Positions 304-28,452 of a DNA stretch of 28,452 bases are shown here, one piece after another; the first letter of the stretch is position 1; the number at the start of each line of letters is the position of its first letter. Under the pieces are notes generated by a model that was given only the letters and a program-made list of their open reading frames with translations, was not told where the DNA came from and made no database searches. This DNA comes from a virus (taxonomy: Duplodnaviria; Caudoviricetes), in IMG/VR virus record IMGVR_UViG_3300009442_000027, positions 1-28,452 of that record; one strand, 5' to 3'. Both the position numbers and the translations under genes were made by a program.

Positions 304-334
304 GGCTATGTTTTACAACCTCGTGTTGGCGGTA
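304..334. repeat. Junction of two inverted core boxes (TTTTACAAC-ctcgt-GTTGGCGGTA)
   Basis: TTTTACAAC (311-319) is the exact reverse complement of 212-220. GTGTTGGCGGTA (323-334) is the exact reverse complement of 1139-1150. Confidence 0.65.
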
Positions 335-1121
335 GTTTTTTTTCCATTTCAATAATCGTACTTATACAAAATAAATTTTCAATACTTTTCAAATTTGGTG
401 ATTTTTCATTTTTATTTAAATACTCAAAAATAGATTTACAATAATAATTTAAATGTTTATCAAATTTAATATCTGAGTGTTTTACAGCTGCACTCAATAT
501 GCTATTTGCCATTAAAATTGAGTTTTTAAGAATATTGTTCCGTTTAAATTCAACTATCTTTTCGTTTTTAACAATTCTTAAAGCATCCCAAAACCCTTCA
601 TCAGCTCTTGGATGAATGTATGAAGACCCTAAATCATATCCTAAACTATAAAGAAACGATAGATTCAATTCTTTTGCGAGATTCTCAATCTTAGGTTCTT
701 CCCATTCTTTTTTTTCTTTTTTTAGTTTTTCATATTTCTCAACTTGCTCTTTTTGGTCAATTAAATATTCTCTAGTTTTTGTGCTATTAAATTCAGAGCT
801 ACTTCTTGTTTTATTTCTAGATTCAAATGTTTTAATAAAAGACCAGTCTTTAAATGCTTGGTAACTATTTTTTTTATTTAAATGTTCAAGATAGAAATAC
901 CGTTCTATTATAAGACGATATAATGCCATAGCTTCGCCTTCTTGATCTTCTTTCAAGAGAATATTTATGCTATTTAACAGTGAGTGTGATTTTGATATAA
1001 AATTCCTTAAAATTATATTTTTCGTGTCAGAATTAGGATCGTCGAATACTATAATAACAATTTTAGTAATCCGCTTATATGATTCAACTAATTTGATTAA
1101 TTCATTATACTCTAGGTTCAT
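306..1121 (-). CDS. DUF5677-like helical protein (cargo, possible defence effector)
   Basis: 271 aa; LYRLIIE and YDLGSSYIH motifs resemble DUF5677; AT-rich and opposite to neighbouring phage ORFs; the C-terminus (LPPT) reads through the core box. Confidence 0.6.
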   Translation of the reverse strand: MNLEYNELIKLVESYKRITKIVIIVFDDPNSDTKNIILRNFISKSHSLLNSINILLKEDQEGEAMALYRLIIERYFYLEHLNKKNSYQAFKDWSFIKTFESRNKTRSSSEFNSTKTREYLIDQKEQVEKYEKLKKEKKEWEEPKIENLAKELNLSFLYSLGYDLGSSYIHPRADEGFWDALRIVKNEKIVEFKRNNILKNSILMANSILSAAVKHSDIKFDKHLNYYCKSIFEYLNKNEKSPNLKSIENLFCISTIIEMEKKLPPTRGCKT

Positions 1122-1139
1122 TCATAGTTTTTTTTAATT

Positions 1140-1194
1140 ACCGCCAACACCAAGTTATGCGAAGCGCAGCTACGTCATAGAAACTGTTAGCGAT
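1140..1194 (-). repeat. attC-like recombination site (about 55 bp imperfect hairpin)
   Basis: Minus strand reads ATCGCTAAC-agtttc-TATG-a-CG-t-AGC-tgc-GCT-t-CG-CATA-acttggt-GTTGGCGGT: AAC...GTT outer boxes, an inner stem with an unpaired base, located between two co-oriented genes. Confidence 0.62.
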
Positions 1195-1235
1195 TATTTT
1201 TTTGTCTTATTCAAAAAGTTGTTCGTGGCTCAAAG

Positions 1236-1982
1236 TTAGGGACTTTTCGGAGCTGGTTTATCTCTAAAATCATCATATATTGTATTGATACCCAGTATTA
1301 TTTCATCTAAACTCTTGCTTTTTTGTAAATTATTAATGATCTTGGAAAGTGGTCGACCTCTACTAATAGTTCCATGGTCTTCTATATATCTATCTAATAT
1401 TTCTGAAGCCTTTCTCATAGTGAGTAAATATGAATCTGCATTTGAACGCAAATAATTTAATTTATTTTCAGATTGATCTAAAGCTTTCTTAAGTTCATTT
1501 TTTTCATATTTGAGCTTCTGGTTTTCCTCATCATAATTATTATTAGATTTACTCAAATTAGCTCTACTTGTGTTAATGGATTCAATTTCTTTTGCCCATT
1601 TGTCTTTGATGTTTTTTAACTCATCCAACAATTTGCCATAATCGGTTGCATCAATTTTGGTTCGCTTGTCTATATGTGTGAATTGATAGTTTTTAAATTG
1701 AACAACAAGCCAAGAAGCAAGTATGTTGAGTGTGCCAAAAAGCACTAAGGCCACTACTGTAAATCCGAGTGGCTTCCATAACAAATTAGTGGACTCTATA
1801 AGTTCAAGTTCTTCAATATAGTCAATTCGAGTGATGCCGTGTAGGTGTTCTTCGTTGATAAACAAGATAGCAACCAATATTTTCCAATTACTAGCAATCC
1901 ATGCCAAAATAAATGTTCCTGTAAATGGTTTTTTTGCTCTTTCGTATAAAGTCGCTTTAACTGATTGATGAAATTTTTCCAT
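1236..1982 (-). CDS. Membrane protein with two N-terminal TM segments and a long coiled coil (cargo)
   Basis: 248 aa; ERAKKPFTGTFILAWIASNWKILVAILF and a second hydrophobic helix, followed by a heptad-rich region. Confidence 0.7.
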   Translation of the reverse strand: MEKFHQSVKATLYERAKKPFTGTFILAWIASNWKILVAILFINEEHLHGITRIDYIEELELIESTNLLWKPLGFTVVALVLFGTLNILASWLVVQFKNYQFTHIDKRTKIDATDYGKLLDELKNIKDKWAKEIESINTSRANLSKSNNNYDEENQKLKYEKNELKKALDQSENKLNYLRSNADSYLLTMRKASEILDRYIEDHGTISRGRPLSKIINNLQKSKSLDEIILGINTIYDDFRDKPAPKSP

Positions 1983-2091
1983 GGTTTTAATGATTTGAGG
2001 GTTATTTTTAAATCCATACCAGCGTTTTGTATAGGATAAGTATAGATTAATTAGCTAAATATACATGTTTTTAATTTCCATTTTATTCTCC

Positions 2092-2850
2092 TTAATTGTC
2101 TTTATAATTTTCATTTATTTTTTTTACAGAAACATTAGTAATTTCGTGACAAGCTTTTAATAGCCGATGCAAAGAATTGGTTAAATAACTTGCGTCAATT
2201 TTCAGGTTTTCACCCAACTTATAATTAGATGCTGAGTTCAATTTTAGGTAAGTTTCATTAACAATTGAATTATTATGAATAATTAAGTTTCTTGCAGAAT
2301 AAATCTCTACTATTTCATTAAAAAAGAGTCCATTTTTTTCATTTACGCTGACATATTTAAAGTTTAAATTAAATTTTTTTTCTAAATATTCAATTCTTTC
2401 CTTGATGCTTTGACGGCCCAATACCTCAACTTCCTTTTTGATTAAATTATTTTTAATATCTTCTATAGAATCAAATGAAAGTAACTCTTCATAAGTTAAA
2501 TTCTTTGTTTTAGTTTTCAAAGATTGCCAGAAAGATTTCAATAACAAGGTAGTGATTTTTGATAAAAACACATCGAAATACGTCACAGCATGAATTAGTG
2601 TCATCTGATAAATTAATAATGGAAGTCCATTAATTCGTCTATTCGTCTGGGCTAATTCAGCCTCTTTTATAATTTGAGCTCTTGTTTTATTACTATGTTT
2701 GTTGATACTTTCAATAAAATTTTGTTTTTTATCTTCATAAACCTTAGTTAATTCTGGTATATTTGACTTGAAGTGCATTAGCTGACTAAGTATATCTATA
2801 AACTCTATTCTAGACTCAATTACTTCTAACTCGTTTTCGTTTAAGAACAT
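2092..2850 (-). CDS. HEPN-domain protein (putative RNase, possible abortive-infection effector)
   Basis: 252 aa, helical, RxxxxH motif RNLIIH in EIYSARNLIIHNNSIVN, with an upstream VTYFDVFL helix typical of HEPN folds. Confidence 0.68.
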   Translation of the reverse strand: MFLNENELEVIESRIEFIDILSQLMHFKSNIPELTKVYEDKKQNFIESINKHSNKTRAQIIKEAELAQTNRRINGLPLLIYQMTLIHAVTYFDVFLSKITTLLLKSFWQSLKTKTKNLTYEELLSFDSIEDIKNNLIKKEVEVLGRQSIKERIEYLEKKFNLNFKYVSVNEKNGLFFNEIVEIYSARNLIIHNNSIVNETYLKLNSASNYKLGENLKIDASYLTNSLHRLLKACHEITNVSVKKINENYKDN

Positions 2851-2940
2851 TTTTTATGATATTTGTTGAGGGAAAACTATTCACCATAAGGTATAGTAAT
2901 TATGCTACTGTTGGAGAGTGGTTTAACTCGGGGTTTAATT

Positions 2941-3129
2941 ATGGAACAATTTAAGAAAATAATTCCAATCTTAGTTATCATTGCTATATACGGAGGCATC
3001 ACAACGATCTACTGCATAGATAACGATATTCCTATAAGATCTGCCTTAGACATAACTGTACCGCTCCTAATTGGGTTTTTCTTGCTGTATTTAGTTAAAA
3101 GTAATTGGAAAGATTTCATGAACAAATAA
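2941..3129 (+). CDS. Small two-TM membrane protein
   Basis: ORF track gives 2902-3129; ATG 2941 (MEQFKK...) is the more plausible start; two hydrophobic helices. Confidence 0.55.
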   Translation: MEQFKKIIPILVIIAIYGGITTIYCIDNDIPIRSALDITVPLLIGFFLLYLVKSNWKDFMNK

Positions 3130-3169
3130 TATCTCATTTTTTTTATATCTTTATCAAAAACTCTGTCTC

Positions 3170-3718
3170 ATGAAAAAAGCCCTACTTATTACCTTATTAT
3201 TTTCCTGTTTTAGTTTGACAGCTCAAACACCCAGTGAAAGCGAAGTTCAAGAAATTATTCAGAAAATAAACAATTTAGACAGCCTCTCAGCGCGTCAATT
3301 TGCTGATGACATTGCCCTTTCATCTAAAACAAATTTTCAGTTTTATGAGCTTAAAACTTATAAAAAAGGCCGCATTCTTAGATACAATTATATTAAGATG
3401 GATCTGCCTGAAGATCAACAACAGAAGATCGAATCCTATGGATGTGATCAAAATTGCTTGACTGTTGAATTTAAAGTGTATTATGAGGGTGGGAATCCTG
3501 ATTTAGAAATTATTGGAGAAAAAAAAATAGCATTTAGCGAAGTTGGAAGCTTCAGATTTTTAGACATATTTCCAACGTGGAAACGGGTATTTTATACAAA
3601 CTCAACTGAAGTTGATGTTTTGAGTTTTAAAAACAACGATATTTATTTAGCAAATACTGGTGTTTTCAGATTTCAAAAATTCAACAACTTTTGGACACTT
3701 AAAAATCAGAGCTTTTAA
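3170..3718 (+). CDS. Exported protein with Sec signal peptide (moron-like)
   Basis: MKKALLITLLFSCFSLTA-Q signal peptide with Gln at +1, typical of Bacteroidota; a -7-like TATCTTTA lies at 3146-3153. Confidence 0.75.
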   Translation: MKKALLITLLFSCFSLTAQTPSESEVQEIIQKINNLDSLSARQFADDIALSSKTNFQFYELKTYKKGRILRYNYIKMDLPEDQQQKIESYGCDQNCLTVEFKVYYEGGNPDLEIIGEKKIAFSEVGSFRFLDIFPTWKRVFYTNSTEVDVLSFKNNDIYLANTGVFRFQKFNNFWTLKNQSF

Positions 3719-27014: not shown

Positions 27015-27398
27015 ATGAAAAAATTAATCAAATCAATACTCGTTTTTGCTATTGCCTATTTTGCTTTAAAATACTTTTTGTGGTTTGGAGTGATGTACGC
27101 ATTTACTATTTGTCTATTAAGAAAAAATGAAGTGGATGAACCTACTTTTTCAGACTATTTATGGCGATTAGCCACAAGTATAGATCAAACTCTTAACGCT
27201 TGTTTGCTTTTTATCTTAAACGATTTAATGCGCTTCCCTAAGGGCATAAATTATGGTAATATAGATGAAACTATAAGTGGTGTTACTGGAAAGAATCAGT
27301 TACGAAATACGCTTACATGGTTTGGTAAAGGAATAAACTGGTTTTTATCAAAATTAGAAAAGGATCATTCAGTAAAAAGCATTGAGGAGGATGAGTAA
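27015..27398 (+). CDS. Phage membrane protein
   Basis: ATG 27015; hydrophobic N-terminus; SIDQTLNA...GNIDETISGVTGKN...DHSVKSIE pattern of a common phage tail-end membrane family. Confidence 0.65.
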   Translation: MKKLIKSILVFAIAYFALKYFLWFGVMYAFTICLLRKNEVDEPTFSDYLWRLATSIDQTLNACLLFILNDLMRFPKGINYGNIDETISGVTGKNQLRNTLTWFGKGINWFLSKLEKDHSVKSIEEDE

Positions 27399-27545
27399 TA
27401 AAAGAGGGTATAAAAACCCTTGACTTTGACTGCTGTAATTTCTCAGGCCACAGCAAAACAATTAAGGTGCCAAAACACCAAGCCAAGGGAGTTATTATTT
27501 CCTTGTTTAGCTGGTGTTTTGGCACCTTAATATTTACCTGAGAAT
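27397..27545 (-). ncRNA. Predicted structured antisense RNA across the leader of the ThyA-like gene
   Basis: Exact minus-strand promoter at 27548-27579; perfect 20-bp stem 27461-27480/27512-27531; outer stem 27434-27447/27537-27549; weak terminator AGGGT/ACCCT plus TTTTATT at 27397-27420. Confidence 0.55.
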
Positions 27546-27547
27546 TA

Positions 27548-27579
27548 CAAATATATAGTTATGAATAAATATCACCAAA
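27548..27579 (-). promoter_or_regulatory. Bacteroidota consensus promoter, antisense to the ThyA-like gene
   Basis: -33 TTTG (27579-27576), 20-bp spacer, -7 TATATTTG (27555-27548). Confidence 0.68.
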
Positions 27580-28196
27580 TGCTTAGTGACATTTTAAAAA
27601 ACGGCAAAACCCAAACTAACAAGAAAGGGATTATTAAATATCTTTTAAATAAGAAATTAACGTTGAAAGCAATTGATCTGCTCGAGGTTTTCGAGGGGCA
27701 TCCTATGGCACGTAAGAAGCTCAAAGATGAGCTCAATCTCTTTATGGTGGGAGAACGAATGACAGAGGCGTATCGTGAAGTAGGAATCACTTGGTGGGAT
27801 TATTGTGGTCCTATACTGGTGAACTCTTACCCGACCTATTTTGAGCAATTGCCAACCTTAATAAAGAAAATCAACCTTGAGAAGCGCAGCAGTAAGAATT
27901 ACGTAATGTTCTTGGGAGCGACGAACCAGGAGAGTAACCAGCAGCCGTGCCTGTCGCTCATTCAGTTTCAAATTGAAAAAGGTAAGTTGATCATCAGTGC
28001 CTACCAACGCAGCTCGGATGCTTCGCTTGGCCTCCCAGCAGATATTTATCACTTGTACTTAATCAGTAAACAGATCAAGTTGCCACTCAAAAGCATTACG
28101 TTGTTCTTGGGAAATGTACACTTATATAAGAATAATATCAAGCCCACTAAGGCGTTACTGAAAGGGAGACAGGCTAAATTTAGTTTGAATGTATAA
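27561..28196 (+). CDS. Compact thymidylate-synthase-family protein with dCMP-type Asp (putative dCMP methylase/hydroxymethylase)
   Basis: 211 aa; catalytic PC (QQPCLSLIQF), YQRSSD, GNVHLY. RSSDASLGLPAD aligns to E. coli ThyA RSCDVFLGLPFN with D in place of N177. Confidence 0.8.
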   Translation: MNKYHQMLSDILKNGKTQTNKKGIIKYLLNKKLTLKAIDLLEVFEGHPMARKKLKDELNLFMVGERMTEAYREVGITWWDYCGPILVNSYPTYFEQLPTLIKKINLEKRSSKNYVMFLGATNQESNQQPCLSLIQFQIEKGKLIISAYQRSSDASLGLPADIYHLYLISKQIKLPLKSITLFLGNVHLYKNNIKPTKALLKGRQAKFSLNV

Positions 28197-28284: not shown

Positions 28285-28330
28285 GTACTTTTGGAATTCA
28301 ATCCTCGTACATTTCGAATTTTCGATTATA
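28285..28330. repeat. Putative transposase-binding repeats and right terminus of the prophage
   Basis: GTACTTTTGGAATT (28285-28298) and GTACATTTCGAATT (28307-28320), 12/14 identical and 22 bp apart, followed by TTCGATTATA; sequence character changes afterwards. Confidence 0.6.
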
Positions 28331-28452
28331 GATCCCCTATTTCCTTTTATAAACTCCCACTCGGTTTGCGATTGCGTTACAATTGTTCTGGAACGGGGGT
28401 AAGGTTCTCACAAAATGTTAAGCTCACGAAATAAGTTTAGTTGATAAATACA

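Follow-up and report, generated by a model that had tools for sequence, protein, structure and literature searches.

A predicted dCMP C5-methylase of the ThyA fold in the mom slot of transposable phages of Bacteroidota, encoded behind a structured leader shared with Mom and DNA methylases

The last gene before the right end of a Mu-like phage was found to encode a 211-amino-acid (aa) ThyA-fold protein with aspartate at the site of ThyA Asn177, which is most plausibly an enzyme resembling the dCMP methylase of phage Xp12, yet no standard member of that group. The sequence analyzed, referred to as the window, is the whole 28,452-nucleotide (nt) stretch of IMG/VR record IMGVR_UViG_3300009442_000027. 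The gene belongs to the Hankyphage "ThyA" family, which, judged by its residues and genomic position, is a conserved, misannotated group of ThyA-fold proteins with Asp177 that occupies the mom slot in transposable phages of Bacteroidota. Cytosine methylation directed against restriction is considered likely, because an Asp-type active site occurs here together with a leader that is shared with Mom and DNA methylases. Fold, residues, conservation, position, shared leader, and exchange with Mom or methylases form the observed side of the model described below.

In the proposed mechanism, Cys130 would attack C6 of the base, Asp161 would select and protonate cytosine, and deoxyribose would be selected by His187, Tyr189, and Ser151. 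Methylene-tetrahydrofolate would serve as the donor, and a final hydride transfer, rather than the addition of water, would yield 5-methyl-dCMP, which host Cmk and Ndk are presumed to raise to the triphosphate, leading to partial, sequence-independent substitution by the host polymerase. The resulting 5-methylcytosine (5mC) in new phage DNA would blunt restriction in the next host, and the leader and an antisense transcript would hold the operon low in the lysogen and during early induction; Mu restrains mom likewise, though by a different route. We hold this full mechanism, in which a dCMP C5-methylase in the mom slot introduces partial 5mC into phage DNA against restriction, with a confidence slightly above even.

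RESULTS AND DISCUSSION

Phage context and right end

The window covers the head and tail genes of a Mu-like phage (with Mu portal, gp36, and MuF), arranged in the same order as in Hankyphage, and the public runs containing this phage are marine metagenomes. The top Pfam match of the ThyA-like open reading frame (ORF) is PF00303 (E = 5e-19). An earlier note, based on the letters of the window, had described this as the last gene before the phage end, a placement borne out by the right-end motif and by junction contigs (Table 1). The phage end lies at 28326 to 28330, 134 bp past the stop codon, and the phage-host junction recurs in independent assemblies: a host contig of run X5 starts at 28330, a contig of run X4 terminates at 28330, and a contig of an RNA run carries different DNA before 28326. 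Since the depth of the host flank in run X5 is 182, versus 5.7 for the phage contig, the insertion site (window 28326 to 28452) seems to be occupied in only a small fraction of the host population. Elsewhere in the window, positions 306 to 2850 (minus strand) and 2902 to 3718 (plus strand) hold low-GC cargo (GC, 0.26 to 0.33), consisting of a DUF5677 gene and four ORFs of unknown function, which are possible defense morons inside the prophage.

Table 1. Features at the window's right end
Feature	Position	Strand	Remarks
Leader hairpin 1	27404..27421	+	3' arm (segment a, 27417-27422) complementary to hairpin 2 segment c
Leader hairpin 2	27434..27549	+	Perfect 20-bp arms 27461-27480 / 27512-27531; segment c 27484-27489
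TAnnTTTG box, Bacteroidota -7 promoter-like, pointing back over leader; predicted antisense promoter	27548..27555	-	
ThyA-fold enzyme with Asp at Asn177 site; predicted dCMP C5-methylase (Hankyphage "ThyA" family)	27561..28196	+	
Right end of transposable phage, host DNA beyond	28307..28330		Motif common to relatives; assembly junctions

Fold and active-site residues

The AlphaFold model of the protein (mean pLDDT of 84, from a 72-sequence alignment) resembles Escherichia coli ThyA with a Z score of 20.1 to 20.2 and an rmsd of 2.5 to 2.6 across 208 to 209 residues. Foldseek matched it to ThyA structures along the whole chain (E = 7e-15), the ESM Atlas returned PF00303 clusters only, and the C terminus of the model was aligned to ThyA residue 264, where the folate-closing tail of ThyA ends. 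Residues were mapped with two MAFFT modes against E. coli ThyA, T4 gp42, and Xp12 TS, all taken from annotated records. The hallmarks of ThyA are present, namely, the fold, the catalytic Cys (ThyA C146 = C130 of the phage protein), Glu58 (E58 = E57), RSxD (R166/S167/D169 = R150/S151/D153), and HxY (H207/Y209 = H187/Y189), and Trp80 is likewise matched (W80 = W79). The earlier note had read the Cys, RSxD, and HxY as intact, and the alignment agrees; it upholds equally the departures reported there, i.e., Asp at the Asn177 site (N177 = D161, in both modes), Leu in place of the His after the catalytic Cys (H147 = L131), and altered RTG and SRR motifs (NKKG and SSKN; R21 = K21, R126/R127 = K112/N113), in a protein whose ORF gives the stated length of 211 aa. 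Of the ThyA phosphate arginines at 21, 126, 127, and 166, only the last is kept, as Arg150. The water-excluding lid and folate contacts are also unlike those of ThyA (W83 = C82, L143 = Q127, F176 = A160), which counts against the main reading. ThyA Y94 corresponds to Y90 in one MAFFT mode and to Y93 in the other, and the register of the invariant N88-S89-Y90 relative to the T4-type Ser/Thr-x-Tyr motif (Ser94, Tyr96) shifts between the modes.

Family, conservation, and descent

A protein search that scored at least 8000 candidates listed 120 matches of 71 to 100% identity; among the matches listed, the closest named homolog is that of a Formosa sp. (91%). Among 669 matching records of cultured or deposited phages, 21 are 68 to 70% identical (19 Bacteroides phages, including Hankyphage, and 2 fecal phage records), and the remainder are below 60%, those listed being approximately 26% identical. 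In a family alignment of 199 sequences (119 proteins and 80 viral loci, two rows being identical to the query; P0002 was excluded owing to an internal duplication), Cys130, Leu131, Asp161, Asp153, Gln127, Glu57, Trp79, His187, and Tyr189 are invariant, as are Lys22, Arg109, Lys112, Asn113, and Ser151, while Arg occupies site 21 in just 10. Asp161, Cys130, Gln127, Asp153, His187, Tyr189, and Glu57 are kept in 80/80 genome loci. The dN/dS ratio relative to locus L002 is approximately 0.09, synonymous sites being saturated in six other pairs.

Homologs are publicly annotated as thymidylate synthase, and ThyA proteins are the top sequence and structure matches. An ordinary, divergent thymidylate synthase is most improbable all the same, for the uracil-selecting Asn177 and His147 are both replaced, by Asp161 and Leu131, in 199/199 sequences, positions 177 and 147 being the top two that separate modified from unmodified phage contigs (PMC8670742), and the protein scores far under all curated ThyA cutoffs of NCBIfam. 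Cytosine-type specificity, as put forward in the earlier note, is well supported. Asp at 177 turns ThyA specificity to dCMP (PMC8670742). The literature, most subscription journals aside, gives the Hankyphage "ThyA" family no cytosine substrate, and the main text of PMC12135933 does not mention the protein.

A profile search recovered graded relatives that retain Asp177 and form a path to ThyA-like proteins carrying RTG, SRR, and Leu143. In a tree of 22 rows, the 13 rows of the short type cluster as a single supported group (98/99), which is not grouped with Xp12, and T4 gp42 and Xp12 are on long, unsure branches. This gradation and the tree suggest that the short family derived from ThyA-like Asp177 enzymes. 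Five full-length ThyA-like proteins (P0224, P0233, P0236, P0252, and P0270) carry Asp177 with RTG/SRR mostly intact and represent candidate dCMP methylases in their own right; a metagenome scan with the distant homolog P0139 returned no matches.

Predicted product

Hydroxymethylases require Asp or Glu at position 143, three residues before the catalytic Cys; in the T4 enzyme, gp42, which is without the ThyA-like C-terminal tail, this Asp145 is required, and D145N is strongly deficient (PMC6400193). Hydroxylases of the RB69 gp48 type (5-hydroxy-dCMP synthase) carry Asn at 169 as a signature, D169N (PMC13326640). Neither residue occurs in the present family, which has Gln127 and Asp153, respectively, in 199/199 sequences. 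The signature of the Xp12 dCMP methylase (D196, D188, and N162) is matched by D161, D153, and Q127, while the intact monophosphate clamp and the linked DHFR/deaminase genes of the Xp12 type are absent. The residues are therefore a better fit to the Xp12 dCMP methylase, with its amide at 143, than to the T4 hydroxymethylase, with its Asp. Methylation is the best reading given Gln at 143, Asp at 169, Asn143 of Xp12, and a tail of ThyA length, and the likely product is 5-methyl-dCMP. If C5 chemistry is granted, we favor a methyl-forming last step (hydride transfer) by a small measure and regard a hydroxymethyl-forming one (water addition) as rather unlikely, if realistic. Expression of Xp12 TS with T4 gp1 in E. 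coli yielded 5mdC, and in the same screen 5/7 Asp177 homologs did so and 2/7 yielded none (bioRxiv 2024.12.05.627091).

Mom slot and neighboring methylases

The right-end slot of Mu-like phages is described as holding interchangeable modification genes (mom, Hia5, Hin1523, and Nme1821) under tight control (PMC3299994). The ThyA-like gene is likewise in the last operon at the right end and exchangeable with Mom or methylases. The mom position assigned in the earlier note is now more strongly supported than it was there, because genuine Mom genes and C5 methylases of related phages are headed by this leader as well; the check on locus swaps proposed in that note found Mom (PF25680), m6A, and C5 methylases behind this leader. 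A slot survey via tail genes covered just 3 and 7 loci.

Neighboring genes were assessed in 160 loci, being the best 80 of 504 viral and the best 80 of 494 genomic confirmed loci. A D12-class adenine methylase stands immediately before or after the ThyA-like gene in 109, 37 have downstream room but no adjacent D12 methylase (one of these, L146, has a ParB-methylase in its place), and 14 loci end too soon. The one-gene system that had been suggested thus holds for the window and some relatives (37 of the best 160) but not for the 109 in which it is accompanied by an adenine methylase. The commonest partner methylase, which has FGGSG and DPPY motifs, shows 35% identity to a right-end gene of Haemophilus phage SuMu; we infer from PMC3299994 that it is Hia5-like.

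Several arrangements within these loci merit description. At L016:5572-6639, the C terminus of a methylase runs in frame into the ThyA-like gene as a 355-aa ORF, representing either a fusion or an assembly artifact. One Flavobacterium genome (G001) carries three such prophages (L092, L094, and L095), each with leader, methylase, and ThyA-like gene. In Bacteroidales phages, an 80-aa gene (phrog_17790; hp44 of Hankyphage, L081:7680-7922, and approximately 45 loci) is situated between leader and enzyme, and it possibly encodes a regulator comparable in role to Com of Mu. The label "Mor-like" was dropped for this gene, whose matches are a weak one to HTH_28 and an unnamed PHROG only.

A structured leader with an antisense promoter-like box

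A structured leader of approximately 150 nt, absent from the earlier note, is located at 27404 to 27555, upstream of the ThyA-like gene (folding z of -8.95 for 27395 to 27580). Among 58 aligned elements, covariation was evident in 8/8 pairs of the base stem and in 9/9 pairs of a mutually exclusive alternative helix between the 3' arm of hairpin 1 and the apex of hairpin 2. The alternative helix shows 70 double-sided changes versus one single-sided change, exceeding all 500 shuffles and all slid controls, these counts being inflated by sequence kinship. In the window itself this helix is 6 bp only, and in stepwise folding it arises only with the 5' arm of hairpin 1 absent; in L013 and Hankyphage it is a transient minimum. 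With RNAalifold, run on the MAFFT alignment, just 5 pairs of the apex were recovered.

On the opposite strand, the element is ended in 78/81 loci (47-nt search span) by a TAnnTTTG box, which we take to be the Bacteroidota -7 promoter consensus; its middle bases vary freely, and the background rate is 13/948 30-nt windows. A sigma-70 promoter scan was uninformative. The plus strand folds better in 70/81 fixed windows, a weak preference since coding controls display it in 58/81, and the conserved apex G-U pairs (47 and 45 of 58) lean to the same strand. The leader may act as an antisense-controlled switch which keeps a harmful modification operon down. What is new here, at the level of sequence, is a structured leader, shared by modification cargo, in which an alternative helix covaries and which bears an antisense promoter-like box. 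The leader reached the gathering score of no Rfam family (20 loci scanned), and no description of it was found in the literature, most subscription journals aside.

A covariance model built from 44 leader elements (match, E up to 0.05) matched 156 of the best 160 loci, including 113/117 of those outside the training set, as well as Hankyphage, and gave no match in the Xp12 or T4 stretch. An earlier check, limited to 240 nt before the first modification gene, had found long hairpins in 106/112 other but 6/48 Hankyphage-type loci; the idea that the latter are without the leader was rejected, as the model places it before the 80-aa gene.

The cargo was surveyed without reference to the enzyme by a pattern scan of viral contigs, which retrieved 73 loci out of an estimated 210; the genes downstream were classified by tblastn and inspection. 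The leader precedes DNA-modification genes in 68/73: ThyA-like enzyme in 20 (11 alone and 9 with a methylase), Hia5-like alone in 12, Hia5-like with Dam-like in 4, Dam-like in 6, ParB-methylase in 7, Mom in 4, C5 methylase in 4, and ABC-ATPase/GNAT/formyltransferase in 11. Pfam support was obtained for two C5 methylases (PF00145) and two ABC or GNAT/formyltransferase loci. The other 5/73 have unrelated sequence downstream, none of them with the TAnnTTTG box. Whole-genome searches added eight leader matches. Two stand before Mom (PF25680), three before Dam-like genes (one of these scanned), and one each before a Hia5-like gene and a ThyA-like enzyme; the eighth is an exception, located ahead of a 102-aa HTH gene of the DnaA-C type in surroundings that are not those of modification (L175:1501-1965). 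Misses in these RNA-model genome searches mean little, because 24 candidates were scored per genome and the known G005 locus was missed. In the 11 ABC-ATPase loci (e.g., L190:2764-4546, L213, L227, L237, L256, and L260), the ABC-ATPase gene overlaps a GNAT frame that has no upstream start, at a run of A's, and a formyltransferase gene follows; this overlap has the appearance of a conserved programmed frameshift within a cassette for DNA modification.

The strong hairpin directly upstream of the gene, the degenerate phosphate and folate sites, and the binding of human TS to its own mRNA (PMC4274661) would accord with a pool-disturbing or regulatory protein, which consumes folate or dCMP or binds the leader hairpin and leaves no marker in DNA. 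We rate such a role as very unlikely, given that the catalytic residues are all invariant (199/199) and that the leader occurs without the gene in 48/68 modification loci, making it independent of the protein.

Route into DNA and the nature of the substrate

The 40 ORFs scanned in the window, which excludes the early region, included no kinase, dCTPase, polymerase, DHFR, or deaminase, in keeping with the earlier note as to the first three. Neither the Hankyphage annotation nor a set of 100 early-region ORFs (four relatives plus Hankyphage) yielded a kinase, dCTPase, DHFR, deaminase, or polymerase; the majority of these ORFs had no Pfam match, and one gave a weak AAA_18 match with no PDB relative. 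Three Xp12 neighbor genes had no tblastn match across the best 160 loci. A DUF4406 protein occurs in early regions (L265:9566-9895 and cluster C14, 19 viral loci; matched in 1/5 scanned); its fold is presumably nucleoside-deoxyribosyltransferase-like, and so is that of MilB, which partners MilA. All five host genomes with such prophages possess an Asn-type ThyA and Cmk. With host Cmk present, a one-gene route into DNA is possible, although perhaps a weak one; RB69/DLP3 TS homologs expressed alone, without a kinase, gave only a trace of modified C in E. coli DNA (PMC13326640).

As the route into DNA is the softest step of the model, we retain, as unlikely but deserving of weight, the alternative that the same chemistry is applied to dCTP/dCDP, to CMP (followed by Cmk and ribonucleotide reductase), or to cytosine in DNA, which would make a phage kinase and dCTPase unnecessary. 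It would suit the absence of a nucleotide-pathway partner from the annotation and early-region ORFs just described and the replacement of the monophosphate clamp by K22, K112, N113, and R109 in 199/199 sequences; moreover, all other slot occupants of known activity (Mom, m6A, and C5 methylases) act on replicated DNA. No ThyA-fold enzyme is known to act on DNA or triphosphates, which counts against this alternative, as does the invariance of His187/Tyr189, which bind a free 3'-OH, and of Ser151, the main deoxyribose determinant. For the CMP hydroxymethylase MilA, Ser at 167 is reported to favor deoxyribose, and Lys at 126, the residue found at the R126 site here, to be tolerated and to aid ribose binding (PMC5175136); the MilA-type pair of Ala167 and Lys126 is not matched, Lys112 being present alongside the invariant Ser151.

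The dCMP-deaminase-like gene found in 5/5 host genomes, scoring below the curated ComEB cutoff, could drain 5-methyl-dCMP to dTMP, which weighs against the main reading. Were this to predominate, the gene would boost thymidylate supply and leave little 5mC in DNA, and the thymine of Xp12 does derive from 5-methylcytosine nucleotides (bioRxiv 2024.12.05.627091). This outcome appears decidedly unlikely to us, as the hosts own a ThyA and the gene closes the tail operon, away from replication genes and following a leader that otherwise serves DNA-modifying genes.

Expression

After repressor silencing, Hankyphage ThyA changed by log2 values of 2.0, 1.5, 1.8, and 4.4 at 1, 2, 6, and 22 h, versus 2.9, 4.2, 5.9, and 6.6 for the capsid gene (PMC12135933); it is thus induced along with the phage, less than the structural genes at 1 to 6 h. 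This lag fits damping and also a higher baseline. It is no proof of damping, because RT and avd, which lie upstream of the leader, lag as well, while the downstream methylase rises early (PMC12135933). Hankyphage packaging is biased toward the left end (PMC12135933). Contigs from metatranscriptomes cover the upstream tail genes, with only a 21-nt off-target match in the leader and gene, and are neutral evidence.

Implications

Nucleotide-level cytosine modifiers are already known from phages with their own kinase, dCTPase, and polymerase. If the proposed function is correct, a widespread family, including that of Hankyphage, is misannotated as thyA, cytosine in phage and host DNA may be marked during induction, and the leader would represent the Bacteroidota counterpart of Mu Com/mom control. 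A further-reaching version, which we consider doubtful, is a self-sufficient, folate-dependent, SAM-independent ThyA-fold cytosine methylase acting on dCTP or DNA, with the leader as universal control of Mom, methylases, and other cargo; its carrier would rank among the most common Bacteroidota phage groups of gut and aquatic habitats, with the leader antisense controlled. The leader is usable alone, having pointed to modification genes in the 68/73 loci, and could find new ones, and inducible Hankyphage lysogens exist as an easy testing ground.

Comparison with known systems

Mu mom and the Hia5, Hin1523, and Nme1821 genes share with the present gene a right-end slot, interchangeable modification genes, and tight control. 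They differ in acting on adenine in DNA after replication and in control via Com, whereas the phage described here has a ThyA fold, an RNA leader with an antisense promoter-like box, and no Com-like gene that was seen.

The Xp12 dCMP methylase (MT664984 45326-46195) has in common with the phage protein Asp177, Asp169, a non-acidic amide at 143, the lack of His147, and the catalytic Cys and Glu. It is longer (289 versus 211 aa), retains the RTG and RR phosphate motifs with all four arginines, and adjoins genes for DHFR, deaminase, and HAD proteins, in a phage whose C is fully replaced; no such neighbors were found for the present family in the best 160 loci. T4 gp42 is similar in its Asp at 177, Lys at 21, and His/Tyr sugar pair; in contrast, it bears the water-activating Asp145 where the phage protein has Gln, keeps three phosphate arginines, and is partnered by a phage kinase, dCTPase, and polymerase, none of which were found with the phage protein. 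E. coli ThyA corresponds over the whole-chain fold (Z, 20) and in C146, E58, W80, R166, S167, D169, H207, and Y209, and is set apart by N177D, H147L, L143Q, W83C, F176A, R21K, R126K, and R127N, the phage protein being 53 residues shorter. The ThyA of Hankyphage (Bacteroides phage p00; DAC76694.1) is 68% identical over its full length and shares the residues, right-end position, and leader, the locus differing in the 80-aa gene behind the leader and in an adenine methylase that follows.
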